Shown one piece after another: positions 6,052 to 58,477 of a stretch of 64,000 bases of DNA (positions are counted from its first letter, which is position 1; each line of letters opens with the position of its first letter). The translations under genes were made by a program, and so were the position numbers. The notes under the pieces were generated by a model. That model searched no databases and was not told the origin of the DNA. It was given only the letters and a program-made list of their open reading frames with translations. The stretch is from NCBI GenBank assembly GCA_964366085.1, contig CAYISM010000001.1, positions 17,211 through 81,210 of the forward strand, written 5' to 3'. This DNA comes from an uncultured Gammaproteobacteria bacterium. GTDB lineage: Bacteria > Patescibacteriota > Microgenomatia > UBA8517.

Positions 6052-6913
6052 CTGAAAGAAATCCTTCTCTTTTCTCTTTTTTTCTGGCGATAAGTACCTC
6101 TTTTATTTTTGTAAGCGCCATCAAAACTACAATCAAGTATCCGGGGTTTTTAAGTATTCTTTTTATAAGACCATTCATATGCTTTTGGGAAAGCGCGTTG
6201 CTTGTCAAATTTTTCCAAATAAAGAGAAGTTGGTTCCTCTCCATGATTCTTTGTGTAGATTTTCCGGGAAGTTTGGAAATAGTGGCTTCATGTATGTGTG
6301 TAACTATTGCTTTTGGTTCCCAGAGTAACAACCATCCCCTTTTTGCTGCTCTATAACAAAGATCGATGTCCTCCCAGTAAAAAGGTGACAGCAGTTTTTC
6401 ATCCATTCCACCCAATTTTAACCAGTGTAATTTTCTAAAGACTCCGCTTCCTCCGTTTACCCAAAAAGTGTTATGAATTTTGTTATCTTCCGGGCCTGGT
6501 TCATGAACTATAAAACCATCTTTAAAAATTCCCCTTGCCCAACCATAACTTTTTTCATGTAATGAGACTGCAAATACGTTCTTGTTTTCAAAATGCGGAA
6601 GCACGGTTACCAGAAAATCTTCTCCGGGGATAACGTCAGTATTTAATAGAGCAATAAGTTCGCCCTTCGCGCTTCTTACTCCCGTATTCACCGAAGAAGA
6701 AAAACCTTTATTTATTTTATGTTTAATTAACTTTATCTCGGGAAATTTTGTTTTTAATATCTGAACACTTTGATCACTAGAATAATCGTCAACCACAATA
6801 ATTTCAGAGATGTGATTTTCCTCGTTGGTTTTTGCATGGAGTACAAAAGGAAGATTTTCTTCCAAAAGCTTCTCTCCGTTGAAATTGGGTATAACAACTG
6901 AAACTTTTATCAT
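6023..6913 (-). CDS. GT2 family glycosyltransferase
   Basis: VSVVIPNFNGEKLL...IIVVDDYSSDQS, GT-A fold. Confidence 0.8.
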   Translation of the reverse strand: MIKVSVVIPNFNGEKLLEENLPFVLHAKTNEENHISEIIVVDDYSSDQSVQILKTKFPEIKLIKHKINKGFSSSVNTGVRSAKGELIALLNTDVIPGEDFLVTVLPHFENKNVFAVSLHEKSYGWARGIFKDGFIVHEPGPEDNKIHNTFWVNGGSGVFRKLHWLKLGGMDEKLLSPFYWEDIDLCYRAAKRGWLLLWEPKAIVTHIHEATISKLPGKSTQRIMERNQLLFIWKNLTSNALSQKHMNGLIKRILKNPGYLIVVLMALTKIKEVLIARKKEKREGFLSDEAIFAKFS

Positions 6914-7564
6914 TTAAGCTTTTCTAACTTTTACCAAATGAAGCATGTCTAAAATAAATTTTTTATTTTCTTCTATTTTAAAACCTACCCCCCTTGATAT
7001 TTTTACAAGATAATCATTTCGATAAGTTTGAATGTGAGTGTCCTGCCATATTTTCCCCCTCGACTTTGTCCAAAAAAACCAAATTATCTTAAAAAGAATA
7101 CTGTCCGAAGGAACTAAAAATACTGCATACCCTCCTTTTTTCAAAACTCTTTTTATTTCTCCAAGTACTTTTTGGGGGTTTTTTACGTGTTCCAAAACTT
7201 CAAGGGCTACAACTGCATCGAATGTATTTGATTTGAAGTCTAATTTATGAGCATCTCCAAGTTGGAATTTAAGTTTTTTACTGTTCCAATGTTTATTCGC
7301 CCAATCAACAGATTTTTTTAAAACATCTATCCCAATAATTTTTTTTGTTTTTGATTTTTGTAAGATTACATTCGTGAATGTTCCATCAGCACTTCCTATA
7401 TCTAAAATTGTTCCCTCACTGCTCTCTTCAATCATCTTGGAAACTTCCTCAAATCGCCTCTTATGCCAATATCTTTGAAGGATATTTTCTTTTATGGATC
7501 GGTAGTACCAATCAGGTGGGACATTCCCGTGAAGATGAGCCGCAAATTTTAGATCATTATCCAT
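6914..7564 (-). CDS. Class I SAM-dependent methyltransferase
   Basis: Motif I ILDIGSADGTF, motif II-like DAVVALEVLEHV; stop/start abuts the upstream GT2 gene. Confidence 0.8.
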   Translation of the reverse strand: MDNDLKFAAHLHGNVPPDWYYRSIKENILQRYWHKRRFEEVSKMIEESSEGTILDIGSADGTFTNVILQKSKTKKIIGIDVLKKSVDWANKHWNSKKLKFQLGDAHKLDFKSNTFDAVVALEVLEHVKNPQKVLGEIKRVLKKGGYAVFLVPSDSILFKIIWFFWTKSRGKIWQDTHIQTYRNDYLVKISRGVGFKIEENKKFILDMLHLVKVRKA

Positions 7565-9118
7565 TTATTTTTTAATGTCCTTTCGTAACCTCTCTTCAAT
7601 TTTTATATCACCGAAGTACCTCTCGGAAACCAATCCGGAATATGAATTCTCCTCACCTACTGTCTCGTCCAAATAACGAAGTGGAATCCCAGCCAAAGGC
7701 TCAATTACTAAAAAGTATTGCTTTGTATCCTTGTCCGTTTTCGGCAGACTATCCAACTGCCCGACTTGGTCTTTTCCATGCCACTCTGGTATATAACCAT
7801 ACTTAGGCTGGCCATACCATTTGTAAAGATAAGTCCAAACGATATTGATCCAAAGAGGCGAAGTTAAGGAATTAATACTAAAAGGTCTTCCCTTGGCCTC
7901 ATTGTAAGTATAATCTATGACTGATAACTGTTTTTTCAGAATCATATCTTTCTGTATCGCAAAAATAGTGGATCCTTTCGGATTTTCCTTAAATATCATA
8001 AGAATATTCCCCAAAACAATTACCCAAAAAACCACTAAGGCAATCGCTTTCCCCCCACTGCTTGCCAAATTGTAAATAAATATTCCTAAAATAATTGAAA
8101 CCGCAGGCCCAATTCCTACTAAGAGAAAGGGTGTACTGGTTCCTCCAACAGATACCACGGTAATATGACTTAAAAGCCATGAGACAATAAAAGGCTGCCA
8201 CCCCACCTCGCCCTCCCGGCTTCGAGAGGCAAGTGCACCACTTCTCCACTCAACAATCGCCATAATAATCAATATAAGTACAAAAACTCCTCCGTAACCT
8301 ACGTTTCCGGGATAACTCGAATAGGCAAAAACTCGTCCTATCTGGTTAATAAAAAGTAGTAAAAAATCCCCAAGCCCTTTTGAAGCAACAATACTATCTT
8401 GTGTAGTTAGCAGGGACAAAACACCTCCGATACCTTTAAAACCAAATTTTATTTCGGATATTAAAATTGTCGAAATCGAAAGCAAAAAAAATATTCCGAA
8501 CTTTATTAGGCTTTTTTTATCAATATTTTTTCTGGCAAACCACAGCCATAAAACCAGCGGTACCGCGTGGTAAAGAAGAAATATTTCCGCTTGAATACTT
8601 AAACCCAATCCGATAGCCGCAACAATTGGGCCCCAACTCTTTTTCTCTTTAATCCAGACCCACAGTCCGAGATAGAATAGCGGCACAGTCCAAACACCGA
8701 TAGTGGGATTTGAAAGCCAAGTGGCATATTGTGTTGCCTCAAAAGAAATTGCGAAAAGTATTGCGGCAACAAGTCCGGCCTTTTGACTTTTTGTAAAAAG
8801 ATAGGACAGATAAAAAACTATAAAAACCGTCAAGGCATTTAACAAAGCTATCCAATAAGCCGCGACAATCGGACTTCCATGCCCTAAATAGTAAGCGGGT
8901 GCGAGTAGGTAGTAATAAAAAACTCCATGATATAAGCCCGGTGTGGAAGCAGGTGGACCTAAAACTTTAAGATCTCCTTTTAAGATTTCTTGACTAACAT
9001 ATGCATCCCTCGCCTGATCGTATCCGAAAGTCAAAGAGAGATTCTTTAAAAAAATCACCCTTAAAAAGAAGGCTAAAACAAAAACAAGAAGTAGGGCCAC
9101 CAAAACAGTTTTTTTCAT
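7565..9118 (-). CDS. GT-C-type polytopic membrane glycosyltransferase (ArnT/PMT_2-like); member of a three-gene paralog set with 24488-26038 and 26585-28198
   Basis: N-terminal TM, then FGYDQARDAYVSQEIL, then a Y-rich YHGVFYYYLLAPAYYLG loop. The same architecture is found in the other two paralogs. Confidence 0.55.
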   Translation of the reverse strand: MKKTVLVALLLVFVLAFFLRVIFLKNLSLTFGYDQARDAYVSQEILKGDLKVLGPPASTPGLYHGVFYYYLLAPAYYLGHGSPIVAAYWIALLNALTVFIVFYLSYLFTKSQKAGLVAAILFAISFEATQYATWLSNPTIGVWTVPLFYLGLWVWIKEKKSWGPIVAAIGLGLSIQAEIFLLYHAVPLVLWLWFARKNIDKKSLIKFGIFFLLSISTILISEIKFGFKGIGGVLSLLTTQDSIVASKGLGDFLLLFINQIGRVFAYSSYPGNVGYGGVFVLILIIMAIVEWRSGALASRSREGEVGWQPFIVSWLLSHITVVSVGGTSTPFLLVGIGPAVSIILGIFIYNLASSGGKAIALVVFWVIVLGNILMIFKENPKGSTIFAIQKDMILKKQLSVIDYTYNEAKGRPFSINSLTSPLWINIVWTYLYKWYGQPKYGYIPEWHGKDQVGQLDSLPKTDKDTKQYFLVIEPLAGIPLRYLDETVGEENSYSGLVSERYFGDIKIEERLRKDIKK

Positions 9119-38658: not shown

Positions 38659-39102
38659 TTAAATTAACTGAAATCTCTCTGCCAACTTTTTTAAATTTCC
38701 CGAGGATTTTGGTAAAACCTTCAGAATAATATACGAACTCAAACTTGCCCCAATTGTATCGAAAACCACATCCCTTACCTTTGGCTCTCTCCCGGGAGTA
38801 AAAATCTGATGAAACTCGTCGCTAATTCCATAAATTACTGCCAAAACAATTGAGTAGATAGCCGCTTTTTTCCTCTCGATTCCCGACCCTTTCAGAGCTC
38901 TATAAAGTAGTGTTGCGAATACGCCATACTCTAAAATATGTGCTGTCTTTTTCAAAATAAAATCCTGCCAATAAATTTCGGATGTTTTAATCGTTTGAAG
39001 GGAAGAAAACAGAAAAATTAAAGCCGCCCATAAAAATGGCGGCAACCAAAGATTTAAGACTTTTGAAGAATTATTCTTTCCCGTTTTCCCCATTCTCTTC
39101 AT
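38659..39102 (-). CDS. VanZ-like family membrane protein
   Basis: ISDEFHQIFTPGREP...DVVFDTIGA, characteristic of VanZ-like proteins. Confidence 0.65.
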   Translation of the reverse strand: MKRMGKTGKNNSSKVLNLWLPPFLWAALIFLFSSLQTIKTSEIYWQDFILKKTAHILEYGVFATLLYRALKGSGIERKKAAIYSIVLAVIYGISDEFHQIFTPGREPKVRDVVFDTIGASLSSYIILKVLPKSSGNLKKLAERFQLI

Positions 39103-40057
39103 TATACCCAACTTTTCTATTTTTAAACAAACTAAACAAAGCCGTAAAGATTAACGCAACTCCGGAAAAAATTAATATTAATGGTACGATTAGAGTCTTA
39201 AACTTATTATCTACAGATCCCTCGGAGGAAGAAGCTTCTTGGGAAGTCGGGCTTTGATCTCCTTCTCTTATTCCCAAAACAATTCCCTCTTGAGTAGCCG
39301 AAACTTCTTCTGTCGGTCTTGGAGTCGGGCTGGAAATTCTGGTCGGGGAAGGCGTGGGGGTTTTAGTTGGCGTGGGAGTTGATGTAGGAGTTAGGGAAGG
39401 AGTTGGTGTGGATGTGGATGTTGGAGATGGAGCAGGATCTGACGTAGGTAAGGGCGTTGAGGTTGCGCCAGAACTATTTGCACTTCCCGGTGTCCCACCG
39501 CTACTGATACTAACTTGCCAGTTAAAAGAATCATTACCAGAACCAGTCACACTTTTTCTTTCTAAAGACTTTCCATCTCCATCCGCTCCCCACGAATTTA
39601 AATAAGATACACTATCTACAATCAAACCTAAATTATTAGCTACTGCTACCGTATCTCCAGAATTATCAAATCCCCCACACATAGAAGATGAAGCTACGTG
39701 TAATGCCAAAGCATCAAGGTTAATACTAAACTTCTCATACGCTTCCGTTCCACTCCCACCATCCGTTATAATCACGTACTGACCTGCAGTAAGTAAAAAT
39801 CCAGACGATTGATATGTTTGTCCATCAGATTTCTTAACGTAACCAGCTTGTAATTGGCTATCACAAACTGTCCAATTTTCAAGGCTTGTACTTTCAGTTG
39901 TATATAGCTCAATCCACTCATTGTAATTATCATCTCCTTGATTAGGGTTATACATTACTTCATTTATCACCACCTGCGCTAAAATCTTTTGGGGAGAAAC
40001 CAAAATAAATAATATAACTATTAATAGAGTTTTAAATACTTTGATAAATCGATTCAT
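39071..40057 (-). CDS. Lamin-tail-domain (LTD) surface protein with Pro/Thr-rich linker and C-terminal TM anchor
   Basis: Signal peptide, then VVINEVMYNP...NEWIELYT LTD signature, then PTSDPAPSPTSTSTPTPSLTPTSTPTPTKTPTPSPT, then a C-terminal TM. Confidence 0.7.
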   Translation of the reverse strand: MNRFIKVFKTLLIVILFILVSPQKILAQVVINEVMYNPNQGDDNYNEWIELYTTESTSLENWTVCDSQLQAGYVKKSDGQTYQSSGFLLTAGQYVIITDGGSGTEAYEKFSINLDALALHVASSSMCGGFDNSGDTVAVANNLGLIVDSVSYLNSWGADGDGKSLERKSVTGSGNDSFNWQVSISSGGTPGSANSSGATSTPLPTSDPAPSPTSTSTPTPSLTPTSTPTPTKTPTPSPTRISSPTPRPTEEVSATQEGIVLGIREGDQSPTSQEASSSEGSVDNKFKTLIVPLILIFSGVALIFTALFSLFKNRKVGYNEENGENGKE

Positions 40058-47800: not shown

Positions 47801-47995
47801 TCAATTTGTAAAAAGATGGTAAAACTTATCATTTTCATCGTGTCCGGTTCTTGAAAGAAGGGTTGCGTTATATCCGAAGGCTGCTTCGTCAACGGTCAAG
47901 CCGGGAGGAGTATTAAGAATTCTATAAGAAAAAAATAAGGCCAGGGCGATTAAAACGATGCCCGCCAGAAAAATTTTCTTTAAAGTTTTATTCAT
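47801..47995 (-). pseudogene. Truncated N-terminal fragment (64 aa) of an ArnT/PMT_2-like GT-C glycosyltransferase
   Basis: TM helix then LTVDEAAFGYNATLLSRTGHDENDKFYHLF, which closely parallels the first-loop DE motifs of the genes at 655-2358 and 2374-3942. It stops after 64 codons and sits 10 nt from the left direct repeat. Confidence 0.4.
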
Positions 47996-48005
47996 TTCTT
48001 ACTCT

Positions 48006-48026
48006 TCCGCCTCTGCTGGAAAATGC
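48006..48026. repeat. Left copy of a 21-bp perfect direct repeat TCCGCCTCTGCTGGAAAATGC; a degenerate match continues about 25 nt further
   Basis: Exact match to 54503-54523. The flanks AATGGGGTACTGCACAG and AATAGGGAACCACACAG are also similar. Confidence 0.8.
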
Positions 48027-48071
48027 CAGTTAAATGGGGTACTGCACAGCATGGATCTAAATTATCCAATC

Positions 48072-51000
48072 TCATCCTGTTTGATCAATTATGTCAAAAA
48101 TCCGTTGTCGCTCCTTGATATCCTCAATTTTTGGACCAATTACTTCTTTAATTGCTGCTTTGGGATCAACTGTATGATTCATAATTGCAGCTACCCTTGT
48201 CGTTGCCCTAAGAGAGAACGGAAAATCAACCTGCTCTAAGCTTCTGCCACTTTGATAAGCATCGAAGGCTTCTCTGATTTTGTTGGCAACTTTTACGACA
48301 ATAAGTAGACGCTTTACCGCATCCTCTCGCTCCGCAGTTTTGAACTGTTCTCCCCCTTTACCTTGCTCTTTATTTACTACCAAATTCCAGAGCGAAACAA
48401 ATTCCGTTTGATTAAGCGCTTTAAGTGGTTCCATCATCTTGGCTGCCATTTCTGCCTCGTCCGAGCGATACCTCACTTGATTCTGGCTACCCGTTTCCTG
48501 CAAAGGTGGATAGCCATACAGTAAAATATCAGCTCTGTCTTTGACCTCTGGTGATAACTTTTTGGTTCCAATATAACGAGTAGGATTCATGTCTCCAACA
48601 AACAAAACGCTTGGATGGGCACGAATTTGTTGTTTTCGATTGCCCTCTGTAACGAAAACCGAACGACGATAATCAAAAAGGGAGTTGAGCAATTTGAGGA
48701 CTTCCGGTGGTAATGTATTAATTTCAGTGAAGTCAATCATTGTCCCTGGCCTTTGTATACCATTAATGAGTTGAGAGGGAATCTTTACAGTTCCTGTCTT
48801 GGGGTCAAACCAATATTCATAGATCAAATCCTGCCTTTCCATGGAAAAGTTACATGGAATCGTAACAATTTCCTCGTTAGTAAAATGGCCGAACATGTCC
48901 CAAAGAACATTTTTGCCTGCGCCAGCTTCACTCTCAACGACCAAAATCCCATCCTGCATCTCTAATTGTAATTTGGCTCTCTTGGCAATCCTGCCATGCA
49001 TTTCTCGCATGTATTGAGTGTAAACCCATTTTTCATTCCAAGTCGGGACTGTCCTTTCTTGGGCCGCAAAAAACGCTCGAGCTTCAGGAGTAGTCAAAGA
49101 AATTACTTGCTCAGTAGTAGGATCAGTTAAGGATAGGGGAATGGACCCTAATCTATCAGGAACAAATTCTCGGCCGCTAGTGTCCGCATAGACTAAATGA
49201 CCAAATTGACTGCCTGGAGACAAGGGGACAATTTTTGGTGCCCAAGCAGCTTTAGACTGGGCAAAAACAGGAAATTTTTCCCCTGCAAAATCAACCTCGC
49301 CTGCTTTTTGTAATACTCCTGCACTTTTAGCAATACGAAGATTCGTGGTTGCCTTAGCTAATAATGCCTCTAGTTTAGTCTCCTCTTCTTGCCTCAATTC
49401 TGACGGGAGTGAGAGAATTTTTGCTCGCAGTTGAATAAGTTGGGGACTTCTTCTCAGCCTTTCCAAATCCGCATTTGATGCTACCGTTTCTATAATTCTT
49501 GTTTCAAATTCACTGACGCCCTGACGGATAATGTCAACTTCGCCGACCAATTTCGTCCTTTTCGCTTCTTCTGCTAGTACCGCAGACTGCCTGATTTGTT
49601 CTCGTTTAGAGTTTATTACTCCTGATAATTTTTGCTGCCACTCAGCTGCTGCCTTAGGATCTTTAATGAAAAAGGTAAGTTGATCAAACTTGAGAATTGC
49701 TTCGTGGCCTGAGAGGTCAGAAAGCTCATCGAGAGAGCCCGCCCTGTCAATTAACGCTTGTACGCGGGTTAACTCTCCAGGAAGAATTGAGGTGATTTGT
49801 GCTTGATAATGCTCAACTACCGTATCTCTTTTCTGTTTTAATGCTTGGATTCTTTCATCTATTTCCCTTCTCTTCTCCGGATCAATAATATTGGCCTTCC
49901 CTCTTTCTAACTCCAATTCTGTTACTTTAGCATCCAAATTGGCCGCTTGGTCGACAGTTTTTATATCTTTCCCCAAAGTTTCGACCCGACTAATTGCCTG
50001 GGCAAGTCCCTCGACTTGAATGGCAGAAATTCTGCCACCGATATCAGCCTCCATTTTATTAAAGCTCTGGGGGTAGTCTATAAATCGTGAATCCTGTTTG
50101 AGTCTTTCTATATCTGAGGAGACCAGAGCCAATTCATTAGGAGTTTTAGCCTTATTAATTCTCTCACCAAATAGCTTCTGTAACTGGGCTTCAAGTGCTT
50201 TATTCACGTCTATTTCAGTAAATTTACGCGGGGTTCTGGCTTGCGCGGTGTCTACAGTCAAGTTCCCGGCTGCTTCTATCAGTTGACGTAATCTTTCCTC
50301 ATGCTGTCTTTTAACTGCTTCAACACCCCCAGGTGGAATACCTGCAAAGTTGGTCTGAACCAGGCGGACTCGATTTTGATCGTCTGAAAAATAGATCTGT
50401 CCATCAGGCGCTACCGTCATATCTCCACCGACTCCATCGATTTCCTTTACTTTTTTACCCGAAGCTTTGTCAACGATTACCAATTTGCCTGAGGTTTCAC
50501 TTGGGTCTTTTTTAACTGTCAGAACAAAAAAATTGCCATTTGGTTCTAATGCAAAGTCTGTCGGTCTACCTCCTAAATCTTCCATGGGGACTGGCCGAAC
50601 GTCTGGATTTCGGCTTTTGACAGAAGAAATGTTTATCGTTTGAACTTTCCCGGTGGCTTGATCCAAAACATAGATCAGTTCAGGATCGTTGGGGTTATAA
50701 GAAGCCTCTTGAGTCAATTGTCTATAAAGAACTTCCTTAGTTTTCGGATCGGTAATTGTTAATAAGCCCTGATAATCCCGTTTCATTTCGACATCGTATT
50801 TTGTAATACTTATTGTTTGTTCTCGTGGTGTTGCTAGTTGTGGGGGAATGTCGCTAATAGATAATATGCCATCCCCTCCCATTATCTTTGAATCGATTAG
50901 TGAACGATATCTCCACTTACCCGGTGAAACAATCTGACCTTTGTTGGCAACTTCAGCAATAATTGGTTTTCCAGCAACCACTATTCTGATGAAATTCCCA

Positions 51001-51581
51001 TCAGGAGAGATCTCAAGATGAGGGTCTACGGTTAAGAGAGGAGTTGTTCCAAAAACAGTTTTGGGCGATTGAGCCAATCCACTTCTTAGCTTACTCATTT
51101 CTATATACAGTTTTTCATCACTTTTTTCTACTATGTTGTGAGTGATTTGCTTGGCAAGTTCAAATACTTTACTAGCCAACTCTAACCCTATCGGTTCAGA
51201 TAGATCTTGACAGTACTTCTTTGGAAATTCATCAAAACGTACCCAATTGCCGCCTTTTTTTGTGGATAATTCAGCAATATCCTCCAGTGTTAGTGCTCGA
51301 TAAAAAGGTAGAATAACTTTGTCTCCTTGATTGTCATAAATGTCAATAACGTAGCCGTTAGGTTCGCCCCGAACAACAAATGTATAACCCCGCGCGGCTG
51401 TAATACTTTCAATTCTAGTTGTGGAATTGTCTTTAAGTATTTCTGGTGGTTGGAGTTCGGCTTGAACGAACGATCCCAAACCACTTTCGGCAGGTACGGG
51501 CCTGAGAGCGTCCCCCATTTGTCCAGTAATTCGTTCTGATGCAAGTGGTTCTGTCATTTTATCCGATAATAAAAGCTTCAA
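48072..51581 (-). CDS. Giant multidomain protein: N-terminal NHL/beta-propeller-like repeats, long coiled coil, C-terminal MoxR/AAA_5-like ATPase module with non-canonical Walker motifs
   Basis: 1169 aa. The repeats include VAPDGQIYFSDDQNRV and EPNGNFFVLTV. About 400 aa are heptad-rich. The C-terminal module reads ESEAGAGKN (Walker A-like), MIDFTEINTLPPEVLKLLNSLFDYRR (Walker B region, D to T) and VLFVGDMNP...LSPEVKDRADILL (sensor/Arg region), which parallels MoxR. Confidence 0.65.
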   Translation of the reverse strand: MKLLLSDKMTEPLASERITGQMGDALRPVPAESGLGSFVQAELQPPEILKDNSTTRIESITAARGYTFVVRGEPNGYVIDIYDNQGDKVILPFYRALTLEDIAELSTKKGGNWVRFDEFPKKYCQDLSEPIGLELASKVFELAKQITHNIVEKSDEKLYIEMSKLRSGLAQSPKTVFGTTPLLTVDPHLEISPDGNFIRIVVAGKPIIAEVANKGQIVSPGKWRYRSLIDSKIMGGDGILSISDIPPQLATPREQTISITKYDVEMKRDYQGLLTITDPKTKEVLYRQLTQEASYNPNDPELIYVLDQATGKVQTINISSVKSRNPDVRPVPMEDLGGRPTDFALEPNGNFFVLTVKKDPSETSGKLVIVDKASGKKVKEIDGVGGDMTVAPDGQIYFSDDQNRVRLVQTNFAGIPPGGVEAVKRQHEERLRQLIEAAGNLTVDTAQARTPRKFTEIDVNKALEAQLQKLFGERINKAKTPNELALVSSDIERLKQDSRFIDYPQSFNKMEADIGGRISAIQVEGLAQAISRVETLGKDIKTVDQAANLDAKVTELELERGKANIIDPEKRREIDERIQALKQKRDTVVEHYQAQITSILPGELTRVQALIDRAGSLDELSDLSGHEAILKFDQLTFFIKDPKAAAEWQQKLSGVINSKREQIRQSAVLAEEAKRTKLVGEVDIIRQGVSEFETRIIETVASNADLERLRRSPQLIQLRAKILSLPSELRQEEETKLEALLAKATTNLRIAKSAGVLQKAGEVDFAGEKFPVFAQSKAAWAPKIVPLSPGSQFGHLVYADTSGREFVPDRLGSIPLSLTDPTTEQVISLTTPEARAFFAAQERTVPTWNEKWVYTQYMREMHGRIAKRAKLQLEMQDGILVVESEAGAGKNVLWDMFGHFTNEEIVTIPCNFSMERQDLIYEYWFDPKTGTVKIPSQLINGIQRPGTMIDFTEINTLPPEVLKLLNSLFDYRRSVFVTEGNRKQQIRAHPSVLFVGDMNPTRYIGTKKLSPEVKDRADILLYGYPPLQETGSQNQVRYRSDEAEMAAKMMEPLKALNQTEFVSLWNLVVNKEQGKGGEQFKTAEREDAVKRLLIVVKVANKIREAFDAYQSGRSLEQVDFPFSLRATTRVAAIMNHTVDPKAAIKEVIGPKIEDIKERQRIFDIIDQTG

Positions 51582-53809
51582 ATCTGTCTCATTCTTGAGA
51601 CATATAAAAGTGTGTTTCGCAAAACCTGGAATGCTGATTCTGGTAATTGACCGAATGTCTCCGGCACAGCAACATTTTCTTCACCAAAATAGAAAGCCAG
51701 ATCTCTTTTCAACTGCTCTCTTTGGACAGGATCCTGAGCTAGTGCAAAGGCTTTAAGAATGGTACTTGATTTTCTCGTACCGATGTAATCTTTGAGTTCT
51801 TGACCTGTCCTTCCCGCATTAGCTCTACCATCAGAAATGGTGAAAATGGCGCCAAAACTTTCCGGAAAAATCCTCTGCGCTTCACTTGTTTCCTCTAAAG
51901 CTTTTGTTATACCGCTATCTAGATCAGTCGATTCACCACTGGCATTAGTCATAGTTACCAGTTTTTTCTTAATCGCATATCTTGGCTCATCGAAAGGTTG
52001 TGTAAAGTCCATAATTTGTTCCGTTTGACTGCCAAATAATTTGATAGCGAAAGGCATTTCGTAATGCTTAAAAACTTGGGCAAAGAAAATAGCGGTTTTG
52101 ATAGCTACCTCCATTTTTTCGCCCGACATACTACTACTGTTATCGATAAGTAGGGTTGCGTAGAGTAAGGCCTCGGGCAAATCTACGACTTCTTTTCTTT
52201 TAAGGATTCTATAATCTCCTACCGGTATTCTTTGAGCCGCCGTTCGACTATCCGGTCTACTTCCGGTTATAAAGCGTCCTGTTCTTACTACGCGATACTT
52301 TTTGGGAACATACGGGTCGATCATGTCGATGAATCGTCGGGTGTAAGGAAGTATTTCTGCTTCAAGTTGTTGATAACGGCGGTAGTGTTCTAAATCCTGC
52401 TCGTCAAATCCTGCTCGTAACATTTCTGTCTTTTCCTGCATCTTCCCCTCTTTACTTCGTCGTTCCGAGTCCCTTGTCTGTTGAGCCTGTGACTCTTTAC
52501 TAAGACGTTCCATTTCTCCAGTTTCCATTTCTGATAACATTTTTTCGAGCTCAGCCGCTGTTTTTTGACCATTCTTTGGATCTTCCCCCTTAAGATGAGC
52601 CTTGTATTCTCCTGTTTTTTGGTCTTTTTCCATCCGAAGAAGTTTTGGGAGCTCTTTATTTAGTGTTTCTGATTGTTTACGGTCAAGTTCCTCCCGAGCT
52701 TTGGCCATTAATCTCTGTTTTAAATCTTCTGGTAGTTGTTCGATGGCCTTCTCAAGAGCTGCTTCCTGCTCTGGTGATAGTTCGCCTGGTTGTTGATCCT
52801 CTGATCCGCCTTGTTGGCCACCCCTAAGCGATTTTTCAAGTTCTCGCTTCAAGTCTTGAGGCAATTTCTGGGTGGCTTCTCGCCCCGGATTGTTACCGAT
52901 CTCTTCTCCTGATTGCTGGCCCTTACCTTGACCACGTCTCTCTTGTCCCTGTCCTTGTTGACCTTGGCCTTGGCCTTTCTGCTCCTGCTGGAGGTTTTGC
53001 TTTATCTGGTCTTTAGCTTCGTCTTTCTGAGCTTGCGCTTCCAAAACTTTAAAAGTTGGCCAGATTTTTTCTCTGAAGAGTTTGTGATTATCTGCCGGGG
53101 TTGCCCCGTAAAAATATTCTTCTAGTGCTGGTTTTATTTGTTCAAAGGCGCTTCTAACTCTTTCATCTTTAAGAGTGGGTAAATTCTCTCCAGTAAGCCA
53201 GTAGTAAATGACATTTAATCCTAGTTGGTGGGTAATTGGCTGAGTAGATACATGGGGAATAATTTCTGCCGTGCTGGCTGCGTATCTTGTTTTCATCTGC
53301 TGCTCTACTACCGTGGAGTCTTCAATTTCTCGAATATTTACCCAAACATCCTCGGGATAGTTAATTGCCATGGCATAGGTACTAGGCAAAACGCCTTGCT
53401 CTTGTGCCCACCTTTGCCCTTCAAGGAATAATCTATAATCTGTATTATTGACATGTCCCACTTCGTGACGAAGTACACCCAGAACTTCATCCTCTGGCTT
53501 GGTGGCTACTTCTTTCTCATCATAGTGAATTTGGGTTGGGTGAAATGTTGAGTTTGGTAAGCCGTCCAAGGTGGGTCTTTGACCCATGACATATTTCTCT
53601 ACTTCCTCTAAATGTTCGTTGTCTAAACCCGCAGACCAACCCCCGTGTTCTGAAGGAACAACGGTGAGACTATAAGTTCTAGAAAATACCCGTGCTATCC
53701 AAGCCATTTTCTGCTTCCGCTCGGCAACCATTTCCGAAGTCAAAGCCTCCTCTGATCTACTAAGGGCTGATCCAGTCACTTGCACGTTTTTATCTATTAA
53801 CTCGGTCAT
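51578..53809 (-). CDS. HExxH metallopeptidase-like N-terminal domain plus Q/G/E-rich low-complexity linker plus C-terminal VWA (MIDAS) domain protein (DUF2201-like architecture)
   Basis: 743 aa. VLGVLRHEVGHVNNTDY HExxH motif, QQEQKGQGQGQQGQGQERRGQGKGQQ linker, and C-terminal LLIDNSSSMSGEKM...TNASGESTDLDSG VWA/MIDAS. It overlaps the downstream giant gene by 4 bp. Confidence 0.65.
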   Translation of the reverse strand: MTELIDKNVQVTGSALSRSEEALTSEMVAERKQKMAWIARVFSRTYSLTVVPSEHGGWSAGLDNEHLEEVEKYVMGQRPTLDGLPNSTFHPTQIHYDEKEVATKPEDEVLGVLRHEVGHVNNTDYRLFLEGQRWAQEQGVLPSTYAMAINYPEDVWVNIREIEDSTVVEQQMKTRYAASTAEIIPHVSTQPITHQLGLNVIYYWLTGENLPTLKDERVRSAFEQIKPALEEYFYGATPADNHKLFREKIWPTFKVLEAQAQKDEAKDQIKQNLQQEQKGQGQGQQGQGQERRGQGKGQQSGEEIGNNPGREATQKLPQDLKRELEKSLRGGQQGGSEDQQPGELSPEQEAALEKAIEQLPEDLKQRLMAKAREELDRKQSETLNKELPKLLRMEKDQKTGEYKAHLKGEDPKNGQKTAAELEKMLSEMETGEMERLSKESQAQQTRDSERRSKEGKMQEKTEMLRAGFDEQDLEHYRRYQQLEAEILPYTRRFIDMIDPYVPKKYRVVRTGRFITGSRPDSRTAAQRIPVGDYRILKRKEVVDLPEALLYATLLIDNSSSMSGEKMEVAIKTAIFFAQVFKHYEMPFAIKLFGSQTEQIMDFTQPFDEPRYAIKKKLVTMTNASGESTDLDSGITKALEETSEAQRIFPESFGAIFTISDGRANAGRTGQELKDYIGTRKSSTILKAFALAQDPVQREQLKRDLAFYFGEENVAVPETFGQLPESAFQVLRNTLLYVSRMRQI

Positions 53810-53836
53810 CAGTTCAGATACTCCTTACATAGATTC

Positions 53837-53845
53837 ATATTACCA
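53837..53845 (-). promoter_or_regulatory. Extended -10-like element TGGTAATAT upstream of the VWA-protein gene; an AAGGAG SD lies at 53821-53826
   Basis: Minus-strand reading gives TGGTAATATGAATCTATGTAAGGAGTATCTGAACTGATG. Confidence 0.35.
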
Positions 53846-53931
53846 ATTAGCCAGTCCGTAAACAACGAATGATTTTCTGTTACCAAACAAAACTGAAACC
53901 TTTGTAATTGAGGTTACTGACATTTCTTGAA

Positions 53932-54183
53932 CTATTTGTAAATTTCTCTTCTGTGACCAACTCGGAGAATAATGATATTTTTACCACCAATGTCGAAAAT
54001 TACTCTGTAATTTCCAGCTCGAAAGCGATATGTTCCTAATCGAGGATCTGTCAGCTTTTTGGAATACTTGAAAGGGCTCAGAGAAAGAAATTCTAACCTC
54101 TTTTTTATTTTCTTTCTGGCAACTCTGTCCAGTTTCTTAATATCCCTTACCGCAGATTTTGTATAAAGAAGATTGTAAACCAT
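53932..54183 (-). CDS. RelE/ParE-superfamily toxin (YoeB/Txe-like)
   Basis: 83 aa; ...YRFRAGNYRVIFDIGGKNIIILRVGHRREIY; start overlaps the antitoxin stop. Confidence 0.75.
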   Translation of the reverse strand: MVYNLLYTKSAVRDIKKLDRVARKKIKKRLEFLSLSPFKYSKKLTDPRLGTYRFRAGNYRVIFDIGGKNIIILRVGHRREIYK

Positions 54184-54431
54184 TAGATCTCACCAAAAAC
54201 TTGGGAGTGCGAAAGAATATCGCCTTTTTTATATTCCTCCCTGGCTTTTTTAATGCTTGCAATATATTTTTTATTGGAGAAAGCCAAAAGATCTTCGAAA
54301 AAATCTATATTAACCAAGGCAGAAGTTATCCTTCCTTTGCGAGACACGAGAAGAAAATCTTTCTTGGATGAAACTTCCTTGATCGCATCCGCTAAATTAT
54401 TCCTAAGCGTCGCAGAACTTACAACATTCAT
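54183..54431 (-). CDS. Phd/YefM-family antitoxin
   Basis: MNVVSSATLRNNLADAIKEVSSKKDFLLVSRKGRITSALVNIDFFEDL is the YefM pattern. A TGTACAATA -10-like element lies 12 nt upstream. The longer ORF extending to 54542 is unlikely to be the real start. Confidence 0.7.
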   Translation of the reverse strand: MNVVSSATLRNNLADAIKEVSSKKDFLLVSRKGRITSALVNIDFFEDLLAFSNKKYIASIKKAREEYKKGDILSHSQVFGEI

Positions 54432-54502
54432 GTCAGTTTCTATTGTACATCTAAAGTGTACGATATCAAGACAACAGTTCCGGTAACGACATTTTTTGCT
54501 TA

Positions 54503-54523
54503 TCCGCCTCTGCTGGAAAATGC
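54503..54523. repeat. Right copy of the 21-bp direct repeat TCCGCCTCTGCTGGAAAATGC
   Basis: Exact match to 48006-48026. Confidence 0.8.
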
Positions 54524-54577
54524 TATACGAATAGGGAACCACACAGTTAGCTCGCTTACTGCTTGCCCCTTCTAAAC

Positions 54578-55630
54578 TTATTGTTGAAAATAATTATTAA
54601 TTGCGAATTGAAGCTGTCCCATATAAAGACGCTTAAAGTTATATAAATTGTTGGTTTCATAGAAAACAACCATAGCACTTCGATATTCGTTAACATCAAT
54701 ATTTCGATAAGATAATGGAAAATAATCGTAAGCCATTAAAACTGCATTTGAAAGCATGCGTGAAGTCCTTTTATTTCCATCAGCAAATGGCTGGATATAT
54801 GCGATCATTATCGCCAATATCAATGCCTTTTCAGGTGAATATTCAGTTTTATTTACACGTTCAATTAATTGCCTTAGTACGTTTTCGATCTGATGTTTAT
54901 CAGATAATGGCTCATACTGCGTCCCGGAAATCTTCACCTTTTGCGATCTAACTCCAGAAGTTATTAGACCTTTCGTTAACACTTGGTGTAACTGAATAAT
55001 ATCGGCAAAATCTAATTTTTTAAATGAATCCTTTTTATCTAAGATCACTTCAAATGCTTTTTTGTGGTTTAAAATCATCACAGCCTCTTCATCTGAATGT
55101 CCATGGGCCTTGATATTCTGTTTAATCAAGGTTTCCGTTTCGATTAAAGTATATGTGTTTCCTTCAATTTGTGATGATTTCCATGAGAGTTCAATGATAA
55201 ATCTCTCAAGTTCTCTTTTATAAATTGATGGATCTAATTTGTTCCCCGCCTCTTTAAAGATTTTTTTGCTTCTTTCCCATAGGTTAATCTCATCCGGTGA
55301 ATATAAATTATTTAGACGAGAAAACACATTATTGTTAAATTTTTTGCTAATAATCCTAGCTTCAATTTCCGTTTTAAAATAATCATCTAGGTCAAGATAT
55401 GTAAGCAGGGAGTTTGTTTCAACCAACCCGTAAATAGTATTTTTCCCCTTCCCCGACATTTCAACAAGATTTAAATCAATAAGGCGATTAAGGTCCCGAA
55501 TAAAAGTGATCCTCGAAATACTTTCGTCAGGTGAAATTTGGCTGGCCAAAACAAGACGGGATATGCTACCCGCCTCTTTTAAGATCTTGAGAATTTTCTT
55601 CTGGCGATCGTTAAGATTCGTATCATTCAT
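54578..55630 (-). CDS. Fic/Doc-family protein with N-terminal winged HTH; core motif QPFADGNKRTSR (catalytic His replaced by Gln)
   Basis: IAYIQPFADGNKRTSRMLSNAVLMAYDYFPL aligns with the canonical Fic HPFxDGNGRTSRLL. Codons were checked directly: CAG at 54791-54793. Start taken at MNDTNL; the ORF track extends to a GTG at 55705. Confidence 0.7.
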   Translation of the reverse strand: MNDTNLNDRQKKILKILKEAGSISRLVLASQISPDESISRITFIRDLNRLIDLNLVEMSGKGKNTIYGLVETNSLLTYLDLDDYFKTEIEARIISKKFNNNVFSRLNNLYSPDEINLWERSKKIFKEAGNKLDPSIYKRELERFIIELSWKSSQIEGNTYTLIETETLIKQNIKAHGHSDEEAVMILNHKKAFEVILDKKDSFKKLDFADIIQLHQVLTKGLITSGVRSQKVKISGTQYEPLSDKHQIENVLRQLIERVNKTEYSPEKALILAIMIAYIQPFADGNKRTSRMLSNAVLMAYDYFPLSYRNIDVNEYRSAMVVFYETNNLYNFKRLYMGQLQFAINNYFQQ

Positions 55631-55639
55631 ACTCTTTAA

Positions 55640-55659
55640 TCGTATCATAAATGATACGA
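55640..55659. promoter_or_regulatory. Perfect 9-bp inverted repeat TCGTATCAT-aa-ATGATACGA upstream of the fic-like gene
   Basis: Read directly from the sequence. It lies between the secA stop and the probable fic start, so it is a candidate operator. Confidence 0.35.
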
Positions 55660-55699
55660 ATAGTGAACACTCCGAAGAGCTCGGCGAATGGAACTCAAT

Positions 55700-55718
55700 G
55701 TACACCTCGGAGGTGTAC
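55700..55718. promoter_or_regulatory. 8-bp stem, 3-nt loop hairpin GTACACCT-cgg-AGGTGTAC just downstream of the secA stop; candidate terminator or operator
   Basis: Read directly from the sequence; no clear U-tract follows on the minus-sense strand. Confidence 0.3.
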
Positions 55719-55729
55719 TAGCTTGGCAC

Positions 55730-58477
55730 CTAAGGAATTACCGGATAGTGACAACGTTTCCACTTCTTCCCGGACCCACAGGGACAGGGGTCGTTGCGAC
55801 CCAACTTTTTTTTATTTGATGTTGATTGTTGGTTGTTGGTTGTTGGTTGTTTGAAGGCGGGCTCGCCAGTTACTAAAGCTTCTTCAGCCCCACCAGCAAG
55901 GCCAGTCATGTCGGTTGTATCAATATTTTCTCGGACTTTCTCAAGCGGGATTTCTGGTGCCGGAGCAACTCCGATTCTAAAGAGTCTTTGACAAAGCTCC
56001 TCATCAATTCGACCGAACAAATTTTCAAAAAGGGCATATGCCTCGTTTTTAAATTCAACTAACGGATTCCGCTGGCCAACACGTCTTAATTCAACCGCTT
56101 CTCTCAAGTCATCAATGTGGTCAATATGATCAATCCAAAGGTGGTCAATTGACCCAAGATATGCGTATTTTTCAACCTGTCTCATCGCACCCTCACCAAC
56201 TTGCTTTTCTCTTGACGCATAAACATCTGCCAGGACTTTATTCAAAAATTCTTTGATCTCATCTTTGCTTTTGAGATTTGCCTGCCCGACGGCAAGGCGG
56301 GAGATTTGAGATTTGAGATTTTTTATCGATTCATCATCAAAAGGAACAACCTCCAAAAATCCTGCGAGAACTCGTTCATAATCAATAGTTTTATCTTCCT
56401 GTAAAGATGCGCTCAAAGTTTTTTCTATCTGACTTAACAGTTTTCCATTTACTTCCTCTTTAATGTTCGAAGACTCAAGTATCCTTTTCCTTAATCCGTA
56501 AATAATTTCTCTGTGTTGATTTGTTACGTCGTCAAATTCAACCAGTCTTTTCCTCATATCAAAATTAAATCCTTCAACTTTAACCTGCGCCTGCTCGATT
56601 GCCCGCGAAACTAATTTATTTTCAATGGGTTGATCTTCCGGAATTTTAAGAGCTCCCATCAAAGATGCTATTTGTTCTCCTCCAAAAATCCGCATTAGAT
56701 CATCCTCAAGTGAGAGATAGAATCGGGAAGAACCCGGATCTCCCTGACGGCCTGATCTGCCTCTTAATTGGTTATCAATTCGTCTTGATTCATGCCTTTC
56801 GGTTCCAATTACATGGAGGCCTCCCGCTTTAATAACTGCGTCGTGGACCACCTGCCATTTTTTATAAGCAGGGGTTTTTTCATAGACTTCTCTATCCATT
56901 CCGGGAGTCATGTCTGAGGGACTCCCTCCGAGAATAATGTCAACTCCACGGCCTGCCATATTTGTTGCAACAGTTACGGCCCCCGGCCTGCCTGCATCAG
57001 CAATAATCGTCGCTTCTTTTTCATGGTTTTTAGCATTAAGTACGTTGTGAGGAATTTTTCTTCTTTTTAGATATTCTGAAACGATCTCATTTTTTTCAAT
57101 CGAGACAGTTCCAACCAAAACCGGCTGGCCCTTTTTGTGTTTCTCCTCGATTTCGTCAATTATTGCAGTGTATTTCCCTCTTAAAGTTTTATAGATTGAA
57201 TCGGAATTATCGATCCTTATCATTTGTCTGTGCGTTGGAACAACTACAACGTCTAATTTATAAATTTTCCTGAATTCTTCGGCCTCTGTTGCTGCCGTTC
57301 CCGTCATTCCTGATAAAGTTTCGTAGAGCCTAAAGTAATTCTGAAAAGAAATCGTTGCGAGTGTTTTTGATTCTTGTTGGATAGGGATTTCTTCTTTTGC
57401 CTCAACCGCTTGGTGAAGTCCATCGCTCCAGCGCCTGCCGATCATAAGTCGTCCCGTAAATTCGTCGACTATCATTACCTGATTATCTTTGACAACATAA
57501 TCACGATCTTTCAAAAAAAGCGTCCTTGCGCGAAGGGCATTTTCAATATGGTGGATTGATTCAAAATCTTTCTCATACAGATTGGTAACTCCCAGAATTT
57601 TTTCGACTTTGGAGATTCCGTGTTCGGTTAAAGAAGCGCTTTTTACTTTTTCGTCGACTTTATAATCGGTATCCGGATTGAGTTTTTCAACAATTTTTGC
57701 GAACTTGTAATATTTCTCCGTCGGCTCTGTATCCGGCATTGAAATGATAAGCGGCGTTCTTGCTTCGTCAATCAATACAGAGTCAACTTCGTCAACAATG
57801 GCAAAATAGTGGCCCCTTTGACTCATTTCGGGTATGGAACTAACCATGTTGTCACGCAGATAATCAAAACCAAACTCATTGTTTGTCCCGTAAGTAACAT
57901 CGGCCTCATAAGCTAATTTTCTTTCAACTGGTTTTAGATGTGAAAGTCTCTCGTCTCCATGGCTGGTATCAACATATTCGGGATCATAAACAAACGATTT
58001 TCCTTCCTGGACAATCGAACCTGTCGAGAGACCTAAAAGGTGAAAAATTGGTGCGTTCCAACCGGCATCACGGCGGGCTAGATAATCATTAACCGTAACC
58101 AAATGAACTCCACGACCTGAAAGCGCCCTAAGATAAAGCGCGGGAACTGCTGAAAGAGTTTTTCCTTCTCCGGTTTTCTGTTCGGCAATTTTCCCTTCAA
58201 ACAGAGAAACCCCCGCCATAAGTTGGACGTCATAATGTCTAAGTCCAATCGCGCGATATGAAGCCTCCCGGACCAAAGCATAAGCCTCCGGTAAAATGTC
58301 TTCTAAACTTTTACCCTTAGTCAGTTCTTCCTTGAAGAATTCTGTTTTTTTTGCAAAATCTTTGTCTTTTAACTTTTTAATTTTGGGTTCAAACTCGTTT
58401 ATTTGATCAACGATTTTTCTTAATCGATCGACTTCTCTTTGGTTAATGTCAAGGAGTTTGGAAAAAATATTAAACAT
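55730..58477 (-). CDS. secA: Preprotein translocase ATPase SecA
   Basis: 915 aa, DEAD-like motor motifs (GEGKT, MTGTA, VDEVDSVLIDEARTPLIIS), C-terminal zinc-binding CPCGSGKKWKRCH. Confidence 0.95.
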   Translation of the reverse strand: MFNIFSKLLDINQREVDRLRKIVDQINEFEPKIKKLKDKDFAKKTEFFKEELTKGKSLEDILPEAYALVREASYRAIGLRHYDVQLMAGVSLFEGKIAEQKTGEGKTLSAVPALYLRALSGRGVHLVTVNDYLARRDAGWNAPIFHLLGLSTGSIVQEGKSFVYDPEYVDTSHGDERLSHLKPVERKLAYEADVTYGTNNEFGFDYLRDNMVSSIPEMSQRGHYFAIVDEVDSVLIDEARTPLIISMPDTEPTEKYYKFAKIVEKLNPDTDYKVDEKVKSASLTEHGISKVEKILGVTNLYEKDFESIHHIENALRARTLFLKDRDYVVKDNQVMIVDEFTGRLMIGRRWSDGLHQAVEAKEEIPIQQESKTLATISFQNYFRLYETLSGMTGTAATEAEEFRKIYKLDVVVVPTHRQMIRIDNSDSIYKTLRGKYTAIIDEIEEKHKKGQPVLVGTVSIEKNEIVSEYLKRRKIPHNVLNAKNHEKEATIIADAGRPGAVTVATNMAGRGVDIILGGSPSDMTPGMDREVYEKTPAYKKWQVVHDAVIKAGGLHVIGTERHESRRIDNQLRGRSGRQGDPGSSRFYLSLEDDLMRIFGGEQIASLMGALKIPEDQPIENKLVSRAIEQAQVKVEGFNFDMRKRLVEFDDVTNQHREIIYGLRKRILESSNIKEEVNGKLLSQIEKTLSASLQEDKTIDYERVLAGFLEVVPFDDESIKNLKSQISRLAVGQANLKSKDEIKEFLNKVLADVYASREKQVGEGAMRQVEKYAYLGSIDHLWIDHIDHIDDLREAVELRRVGQRNPLVEFKNEAYALFENLFGRIDEELCQRLFRIGVAPAPEIPLEKVRENIDTTDMTGLAGGAEEALVTGEPAFKQPTTNNQQSTSNKKKLGRNDPCPCGSGKKWKRCHYPVIP

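Follow-up and report, generated by a model that had tools for sequence, protein, structure and literature searches.

What process is served by two adjacent genes, one encoding a VWA protein with a MIDAS (an adhesion site that depends on a metal ion) and an HExxH motif, the other an AAA+ ATPase that carries a beta-propeller on a long helical stalk? The pair lies on the reverse strand of the 64,000-nucleotide (nt) stretch of contig CAYISM010000001.1 that we analysed, called here the window, and we refer to the two products as the adaptor and the ATPase. The pair is probably an ATP-driven MoxR-class AAA+/VWA client-remodelling machine of the NorQ/NorD and CbbQ/CbbO kind; CobS/CobT and, more distantly, midasin are of the same mechanistic kind, which is here self-contained in two genes. 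Remodelling is possibly coupled to proteolysis, a suggestion that we hold with much lower confidence than the class of the machine. What is new is that the motor is fused to a stalked propeller, that the adaptor has an HExxH head and that the P-loop has the form GK[N/D]; together these features make an architectural variant of a known machine type.

A preliminary description of this DNA had identified the pair as a MoxR/AAA_5 ATPase with a MIDAS-VWA partner, and both assignments were borne out by Pfam matches above the cut-offs: AAA_5 as one module at ATPase residues 885-1016 (49.1 bits vs a cut-off of 22, E=7.6e-13) and VWA in the adaptor (25.9 bits vs 23.8, E=1.4e-5), whose open reading frame (ORF) of 743 amino acids (aa) has HEVGH at residues 115-119 and the MIDAS stretch DNSSS at 556-560, as described. 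It had also placed the size and domain arrangement outside any described family that was recognised, and this agrees with scans of Pfam, NCBIfam, PADLOC and PHROG, in which no family covers the accessory domains of either protein. NCBIfam matched neither adaptor nor ATPase, PADLOC-DB 2.0 gave 0 families for either protein at E<=1, Pfam bpMoxR did not match the ATPase, and in PHROGs the only matches were CobS- and CobT-like ones to the core ('porphyrin biosynthesis', CobS-like, 1.2e-7). The DUF2201_N plus VWA architecture proposed for the adaptor had to be abandoned: none of 8 members matched DUF2201_N or DUF2201 (PF13203, PF09967) at E<=5, and Pfam yielded at the HExxH motif just a sub-threshold match to Peptidase_M48 (4 of the 8 members, best E 0.043). 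Proteins of the DUF2201_N/DUF2201 type are alike in concept, with an HExxH head, a VWA-like tail and a gene beside an AAA_5 gene, whereas the adaptor is about twice as long and has a long disordered and helical linker.

An exhaustive HMMER search with the ATPase returned 877 relatives at E<=1e-3, 83 of them at E<1e-30; a word-indexed homologue search matched only a fragment of the ATPase itself. About 45 of these 83 are full-length (1058-1229 aa, 21-35% identity) and none of them is named. In the AlphaFold model of the ATPase, built on 39 sequences with a predicted local distance difference test score (pLDDT) of 81, residues ~41-415 are rich in beta structure, and the AAA+ core spans residues 879-1021, has hairpins at the helix-2-insert and pre-sensor-1 positions, and is followed by a helical lid. 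Lysine K890, catalytic glutamate E953, sensor-1 N999 and the arginine finger R1016 are invariant across 39 members, and the helix-2-insert region (D918, G930, T931) is among the best conserved parts of the protein. Ahead of the core, F770 and P771 are invariant in a four-sequence alignment (A1), and F770 and P846 are nearly invariant over the 39 members.

The P-loop of the window ATPase, SEAGAGKN, does not fit the canonical Walker A GxxxxGK[S/T]. GxxGxGK[N/D] is found in 38 of the 39 full-length members and in nearly all of the top 150 relatives, while E953 is preceded by D in most members and by G, N, I or T in others. Since K890, E953, N999 and R1016 are invariant, GK[N/D] looks like a conserved variant rather than the product of decay. 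TorsinA, with a Walker A of the form GxxxxGKN that was reported not to impair chaperone function, provides an analogy by which the GKN P-loop seems compatible with ATPase activity (PMC5628414); Torsins belong to a different AAA+ clade and, unlike the present family, have no arginine finger. The only part that a second uncharacterised family (P0080-P0158, 1240-1390 aa) has in common with the ATPase is the C-terminal AAA_5 module; the P-loop of this family is GHAGTGKD, which suggests that GK[N/D] marks a broader undescribed AAA_5 branch.

The adaptor homologues (n=7, 33-43% identity) can be aligned end to end. In the AlphaFold2 (AF2) model of the adaptor (pLDDT 75.6), an alpha/beta and helical N-domain is followed by a disordered Q/G-rich stretch, long charged helices and the C-terminal VWA domain. 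The disordered Q/G/E/K-rich segment occurs in all homologues with varying length, and region 262-500 contains 21% D+E with a net charge of -7 (family range -5 to -25). The MIDAS is complete: D556, S560 and the distal residues T628 and D660 are invariant, and position 558 is S or T across members. When the modelled VWA domain was compared with the PDB by Foldseek, the best matches were to human MDN1 and Chaetomium Rea1, in their MIDAS domains (2.8e-8, template modelling score 0.77, about 295 columns), followed by the VWA of NorD (8.4e-6, 256-276 columns). Because the model aligns over 256-298 columns with MDN1, Rea1 and NorD and over only about 190 with integrin-type VWA domains, the predicted adaptor VWA is of the extended type that docks on AAA+ rings; residues 503-547 are the candidate finger segment.

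The head of the adaptor carries a second set of conserved residues, with H115, E116, H119, D124, E153 and D154 invariant in 8 to 12 family members. In the model, HEVGH lies on helix 106-122, and a further helix (142-162) and a strand (93-96) belong to the predicted arrangement. The invariance of HExxH and of the downstream E/D residues makes a zincin-like metal site likely, with a fold assignment that is statistically not established. A profile of the N-domain matched PDB entries weakly, with matches centred on HExxH (MJ1213 minigluzincin 0.18, Ste24 0.27, HtpX 0.64). No Pfam family matched this domain, and a profile of 12 N-domains searched against 5.8 billion proteins found family fragments and no relatives outside the family.

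A survey of the retrieved loci with hidden Markov models (HMM) showed 10 distinct loci with the adaptor gene directly upstream of the ATPase gene and in the same orientation. These are the window, L001, L002, L006, a Shapirobacteria locus (L003; L004, L005 and L009 are the same locus), a Gammaproteobacteria metagenome-assembled genome (MAG; L007), Magasanikbacteria (L008), Uhrbacteria (L010), a Patescibacteria single-cell genome (L011) and a Pseudomonadales MAG (L030). The nearest named relatives belong to Candidatus Shapirobacteria, Magasanikbacteria and Uhrbacteria, and the window itself probably derives from a Patescibacteria (CPR) genome. The overall spread is patchy, over Patescibacteria, Gammaproteobacteria and Bdellovibrionales. 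Neighbouring genes were annotated in four contexts besides the window (L001, L002, L003-L005 and L006); they differ between loci, are of the housekeeping sort (DnaJ, PurF, UDG, AP endonuclease, HAD hydrolase), and include no third gene conserved beside the pair. In the window, the 4-bp overlap of the two genes in the preliminary description exists only if the ATPase starts at TTG; the NCBI gene model of 1161 aa begins at an ATG 24 nt farther downstream, and the genes are then separated by a spacer of 20 nt. With spacers of 2-41 nt in the homologous loci, the genes are tightly linked and likely co-transcribed whichever start holds.

Similar ATPases also occur apart from the adaptor. A relative with a propeller-like region and AAA_5, about 940 aa long, is present in about 30 Aquificaceae genomes and in one Acidobacteria MAG. 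The Aquificaceae relatives, including one from an Aquifex aeolicus MAG, are among loci L012-L049 (for example L023:6528-9356, E=2.2e-28); at L023, the one Aquificaceae locus examined, the upstream genes encode a zinc-ribbon/HEAT protein and a DUF6789 protein. Loci from Candidatus Gracilibacteria (L044) and Peribacteria (L046) have only the AAA core in common with the ATPase. In L044, translation table 11 gives only 2 ORFs of 150 aa or more, and code 25, in which UGA is a sense codon, gives 19, so table-11 ORF lists mislead at this locus; a code-25 ORF of 890 aa (6429-9098) spans the tblastn match to the AAA_5 core (8001-8540).

Taking into consideration: (i) the AAA_5 match, the invariant K890, E953, N999 and R1016 and the conserved helix-2 insert, (ii) the NorD-like layout of the adaptor, with a full DxSxS-T-D MIDAS and a VWA model of the ring-docking type, (iii) the same-strand pairing at 10 distinct loci of different lineages, and (iv) the invariant HExxH with its downstream E/D pair, together with a GKN P-loop compatible with ATPase activity; we favour a machine of the NorQD/CbbQO type. 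The layout of NorD is an N-domain, a disordered linker and a C-terminal VWA domain (PMC9976466), and in NorQ the helix-2 insert contacts the VWA finger (PMC13036017). For this kind of system, docking of the finger in the pore and twisting of the adaptor linker have been shown or proposed (PMC13036017, PMC9976466). NorQ/NorD and CbbQ/CbbO (CGN subgroup) share with the window pair a separate adaptor having an N-domain, a disordered linker and a C-terminal MIDAS-VWA, adjacent genes and a conserved helix-2 insert. The pair differs from them in its ATPase, which is about four times larger than NorQ or CbbQ, has in front of the AAA+ module a beta-propeller and a helical stalk (about 335 residues), and carries GK[N/D] in the P-loop where theirs is GKT. 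It differs also in the invariant HExxH of the adaptor N-domain, in the gene order (adaptor, then motor), and in having no NOR or Rubisco genes nearby; sequence identity is only about 16-22%.

The preliminary description had likened the pair to a split midasin, and the resemblance held at the level of domains. The MIDAS of midasin (Rea1/MDN1) is the closest to the adaptor VWA model, it too is preceded by a charged, partly disordered linker, and the ATPase family profile matches midasin; however, the pair is no closer to midasin than to CbbQ/NorQ. The solved structures closest to the ATPase module are NorQ and CbbQ, which are closer than midasin. A special affinity to midasin was set aside, as the profile E-value of 3.8e-29 is a sum over six repeated AAA domains and the best single one (32.5 bits) does no better than CbbQ (37.3 bits). 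Midasin has six AAA+ modules fused in one chain and no HExxH domain, whereas here there is one module per chain, motor and MIDAS are on separate proteins, and the linker is only mildly acidic. WD40 propellers are involved in the midasin system as its substrates, Ytm1 and Rsa4.

For the NorQD/CbbQO-type machine we propose the following mechanism. The large protein may form a hexameric ring through its C-terminal AAA+ modules, and six beta-propellers would be held out on its helical stalks as platforms where a client or a surface could dock. A single adaptor molecule would set its extended VWA domain onto the ring, perhaps with the finger in the pore, and the MIDAS metal would capture an acidic residue of the client protein. 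ATP-driven movements of the ring could then pass via the VWA domain and the flexible charged linker, with the client pulled or twisted relative to the N-terminal HExxH domain of the adaptor. This domain would either cleave the client or, as in NorD, serve as a second anchor point.

Several observations weigh against this proposal. The P-loop has no canonical Ser/Thr, and the window ATPase has Thr for the Walker B Asp and Ser for the first Gly of the P-loop; ATPase activity could for these reasons be low or regulatory. On the adaptor side, the VWA finger is not resolved in the model, where the tip (residues 510-538) has low confidence. The zincin assignment consists of motif invariance and sub-threshold matches (E 0.04-0.6), and the Foldseek list of PDB matches to the adaptor model is mostly of VWA domains and does not single out a fold for the N-domain. 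No VWA gene lies within 8 kb of the ~940-aa ATPases of Aquificaceae and Acidobacteria, from which it follows that in Aquificaceae the motor can apparently work without this adaptor. Finally, no client or third gene is conserved with the pair.

MoxR/VWA pairs are widespread, and clients are known for a handful: NOR, Rubisco, chelatases and pre-ribosomes. To the characterised pairs the present family adds a motor with a stalked propeller, a probable zinc-peptidase head and a conserved GK[N/D] P-loop. As a compact two-gene system of reduced genomes it should be tractable, and it could test whether the mechanism of placing a finger in the pore and twisting the linker generalises, whether an AAA+/VWA motor can be coupled to proteolysis, and how Asn/Asp replaces the Mg-coordinating Ser/Thr of Walker A.

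Another reading would make the pair a hitherto unrecognised machine for ATP-dependent proteolysis or processing (a 'split midasin with teeth'), in which a ring of GK[N/D]-type AAA+ modules stands on stalks tipped with WD40-like propellers, the midasin-like MIDAS seizes a specific acidic residue of the client, and the client is mechanically fed to the adaptor's zincin domain, or positioned there, to be cleaved. We consider this unlikely. If true, such a protease would be unrelated in architecture to FtsH, Lon and Clp and, being concentrated in ultra-small Patescibacteria, could mature cell-surface or host-interaction apparatus.

The HExxH domain could instead bind metal for delivery, and the pair would then be a chaperone for cofactor or metal insertion, strictly of the kind of NorQD, CobST or BchID. 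CobT_C matches 6 of the 8 adaptor members weakly (best E 6.3e-6; the window protein, at 14.7 bits, is below the cut-off of 21), and the CobS-like PHROG match, NorQ and CbbQ as the closest solved structures, and the invariant His/Glu/Asp cluster of the adaptor all agree with such a role. However, no CobN/BchH-like or NOR genes lie near the pair at the four annotated loci, the propeller and stalk (840 residues) have no counterpart in chelatases, and the hosts are mostly reduced-genome Patescibacteria, where from general knowledge these pathways are unexpected. A strict metal chaperone is for these reasons quite improbable.

The surroundings of the pair in the window bear on a further proposal. 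The preliminary description had suggested a mobile defence, addiction or host-interaction module, and in an anti-phage defence or addiction module a vWA-MoxR core would sense an invader, unleash an HExxH protease effector and travel on a cassette with Phd/ParE. The reported toxin-antitoxin pair is indeed present directly upstream (Pfam ParE 4.8e-14; Phd 6.7e-5, below the Pfam cut-off, from residue 38 of the listed ORF), as is the repeat-bounded segment: direct-repeat copies of 57 nt, which share a 21-nt core (TCCGCCTCTGCTGGAAAATGC) exactly and have 0 matches expected by chance, bracket 6.5 kb holding Phd/ParE and the adaptor and ATPase genes. A Fic gene and a truncated glycosyltransferase remnant adjoin the segment as signs of rearrangement, the phyletic spread is patchy, and peptidase effectors are on record in vWA-MoxR conflict systems (PMC7159879). 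Outside the local context, however, nothing supports such a role. No PADLOC model matches either protein, PLSDB plasmids hold no match to the pair, and matches in phage genomes are confined to the CobS-like AAA core. The pair does recur elsewhere, at the nine other loci given above. In the four other annotated contexts its neighbours are housekeeping genes, with no Phd/ParE or other toxin-antitoxin or defence genes; Phd/ParE is context only, outside the conserved pair. Identity between the two repeat copies is only 77%, and the metagenome matches to the repeat core included no empty insertion site.

Ternary vWA-MoxR conflict systems of the beta-propeller subtype have the propeller after the vWA, an obligatory variable third component and a P-loop GXXXTAKS (Kaur et al. 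2020, PMC7159879). The window pair shares with the ternary systems, which occasionally have metallopeptidase effectors (PMC7159879), a MoxR and vWA core and a beta-propeller somewhere, whereas its propeller is on the ATPase, its P-loop is GxxGxGK[N/D], it has no match to bpMoxR, and it lacks a variable third component or an effector-associated domain. The pair thus differs from the beta-propeller ternary systems in every defining feature testable, and a defence or addiction role is doubtful at best. Least credible of all is a catalytically dead ATPase in a static scaffold or adhesin-like propeller/coiled-coil/VWA assembly, which the family-wide non-canonical GK[N/D] and the Thr and Ser replacements of the window protein might suggest, but which is highly improbable given the four invariant catalytic residues in 39 members, an N/D substitution that is itself conserved and not decayed, the activity of Torsin with GKN (PMC5628414), and the lack of an obvious signal peptide or hydrophobic segment at either N-terminus (translations read by eye, with no prediction tool).

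Table 1. Features of the adaptor-ATPase locus, in window positions.
Feature	Position	Strand	Remarks
VWA adaptor gene	51578..53809	-	743 aa, ATG start; ORF and translation
Adaptor N-terminal alpha/beta and helical domain with HExxH, residues ~25-262	53024..53737	-	candidate gluzincin-type metallopeptidase or metal-binding head
HEVGH motif, residues 115-119	53453..53467	-	from translation; invariant across adaptor family
Q/G/E/K-rich low-complexity segment, predicted disordered, residues 277-343	52781..52981	-	pLDDT <50 at 277-317, 330-343
Charged helical linker, residues 346-500	52310..52774	-	AF2 long helices 411-465, 470-500
Extended VWA/MIDAS domain, residues ~503-743	51581..52303	-	Pfam VWA, Foldseek
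MIDAS DxSxS (DNSSS), residues 556-560	52130..52144	-	invariant alignment columns
Propeller-stalk-AAA+ ATPase gene	48072..51581	-	1169 aa (TTG at 51581) or 1161 aa (ATG at 51557)
N-terminal beta-propeller region, residues ~41-415	50337..51461	-	low-confidence helical insert 99-170
Long helical stalk, residues 419-754	49320..50327	-	AF2 helices up to 58 residues, pLDDT ~80-90
Small beta domain (757-800) and pre-AAA helices (821-875)	48957..49313	-	AF2 model
MoxR-type AAA+ module, residues 876-1169	48075..48956	-	alpha/beta core and helical lid
Variant Walker A SEAGAGKN, residues 884-891	48909..48932	-	
Walker B MIDFTE, residues 948-953	48723..48740	-	Glu kept, Asp -> Thr in window protein
Phd/YefM-like antitoxin (probable ATG 54431) and ParE toxin (53932-54183)	53932..54431	-	directly upstream of pair
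Direct repeat, downstream copy, 57 nt	47993..48049	.	
Direct repeat, upstream copy, 57 nt	54490..54546	.	
64-codon ORF remnant (MNKTLKKIFLAGIVLIALALFF...DEAAFGYNATLL...)	47801-47995	-	34% identical to start of ORF 655-2358

The window neighbours of the pair are ordinary chromosomal genes (SecA, Fic, Phd/ParE, an FKBP isomerase, LytR_C, a PCRF/RF-1-type release factor, FtsEX and an M23 peptidase), and no tRNA or Rfam matches were found. Read on the coding strand, each repeat copy closes with an ATG after a ribosome-binding-like stretch; in the downstream copy this ATG is the start codon of the 64-codon remnant. By its translation, the remnant looks like the truncated N-terminus of a membrane glycosyltransferase of the GT39/PMT_2 type, and is probably a gene leftover at the edge of an inserted or rearranged segment; its position against the downstream copy speaks for an earlier rearrangement or insertion here. 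For the FKBP gene downstream, the probable start is an internal ATG rather than the listed TTG 47892.

When metagenomes were scanned with the 21-nt repeat core, two unrelated matches and two short contigs of the same organism came up, the latter identical to parts of the window, from the 0.1 um fraction of Hainich groundwater and labelled Hain-H43. Contigs L051 (3015 nt) and L053 (4765 nt), of the same groundwater sample, are 100% identical to window positions 47933-50558 and 51797-56061, respectively. Their alignments stop about 400-500 nt before the contig ends, within the stretch of the ATPase gene that codes for the propeller and within secA, and these breaks suggest strain-level variants or assembly chimeras. 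Between SecA and Phd/ParE, a 375-aa Fic/DOC-domain protein (54578-55705, reverse strand) could be a further toxin-like element. Elsewhere in the window, a 328-aa lamin-tail domain protein (LTD, E=5.9e-12; 39071-40057, reverse strand) adjoins a Trp-repressor-like HTH protein and the FtsEX/M23 cluster.

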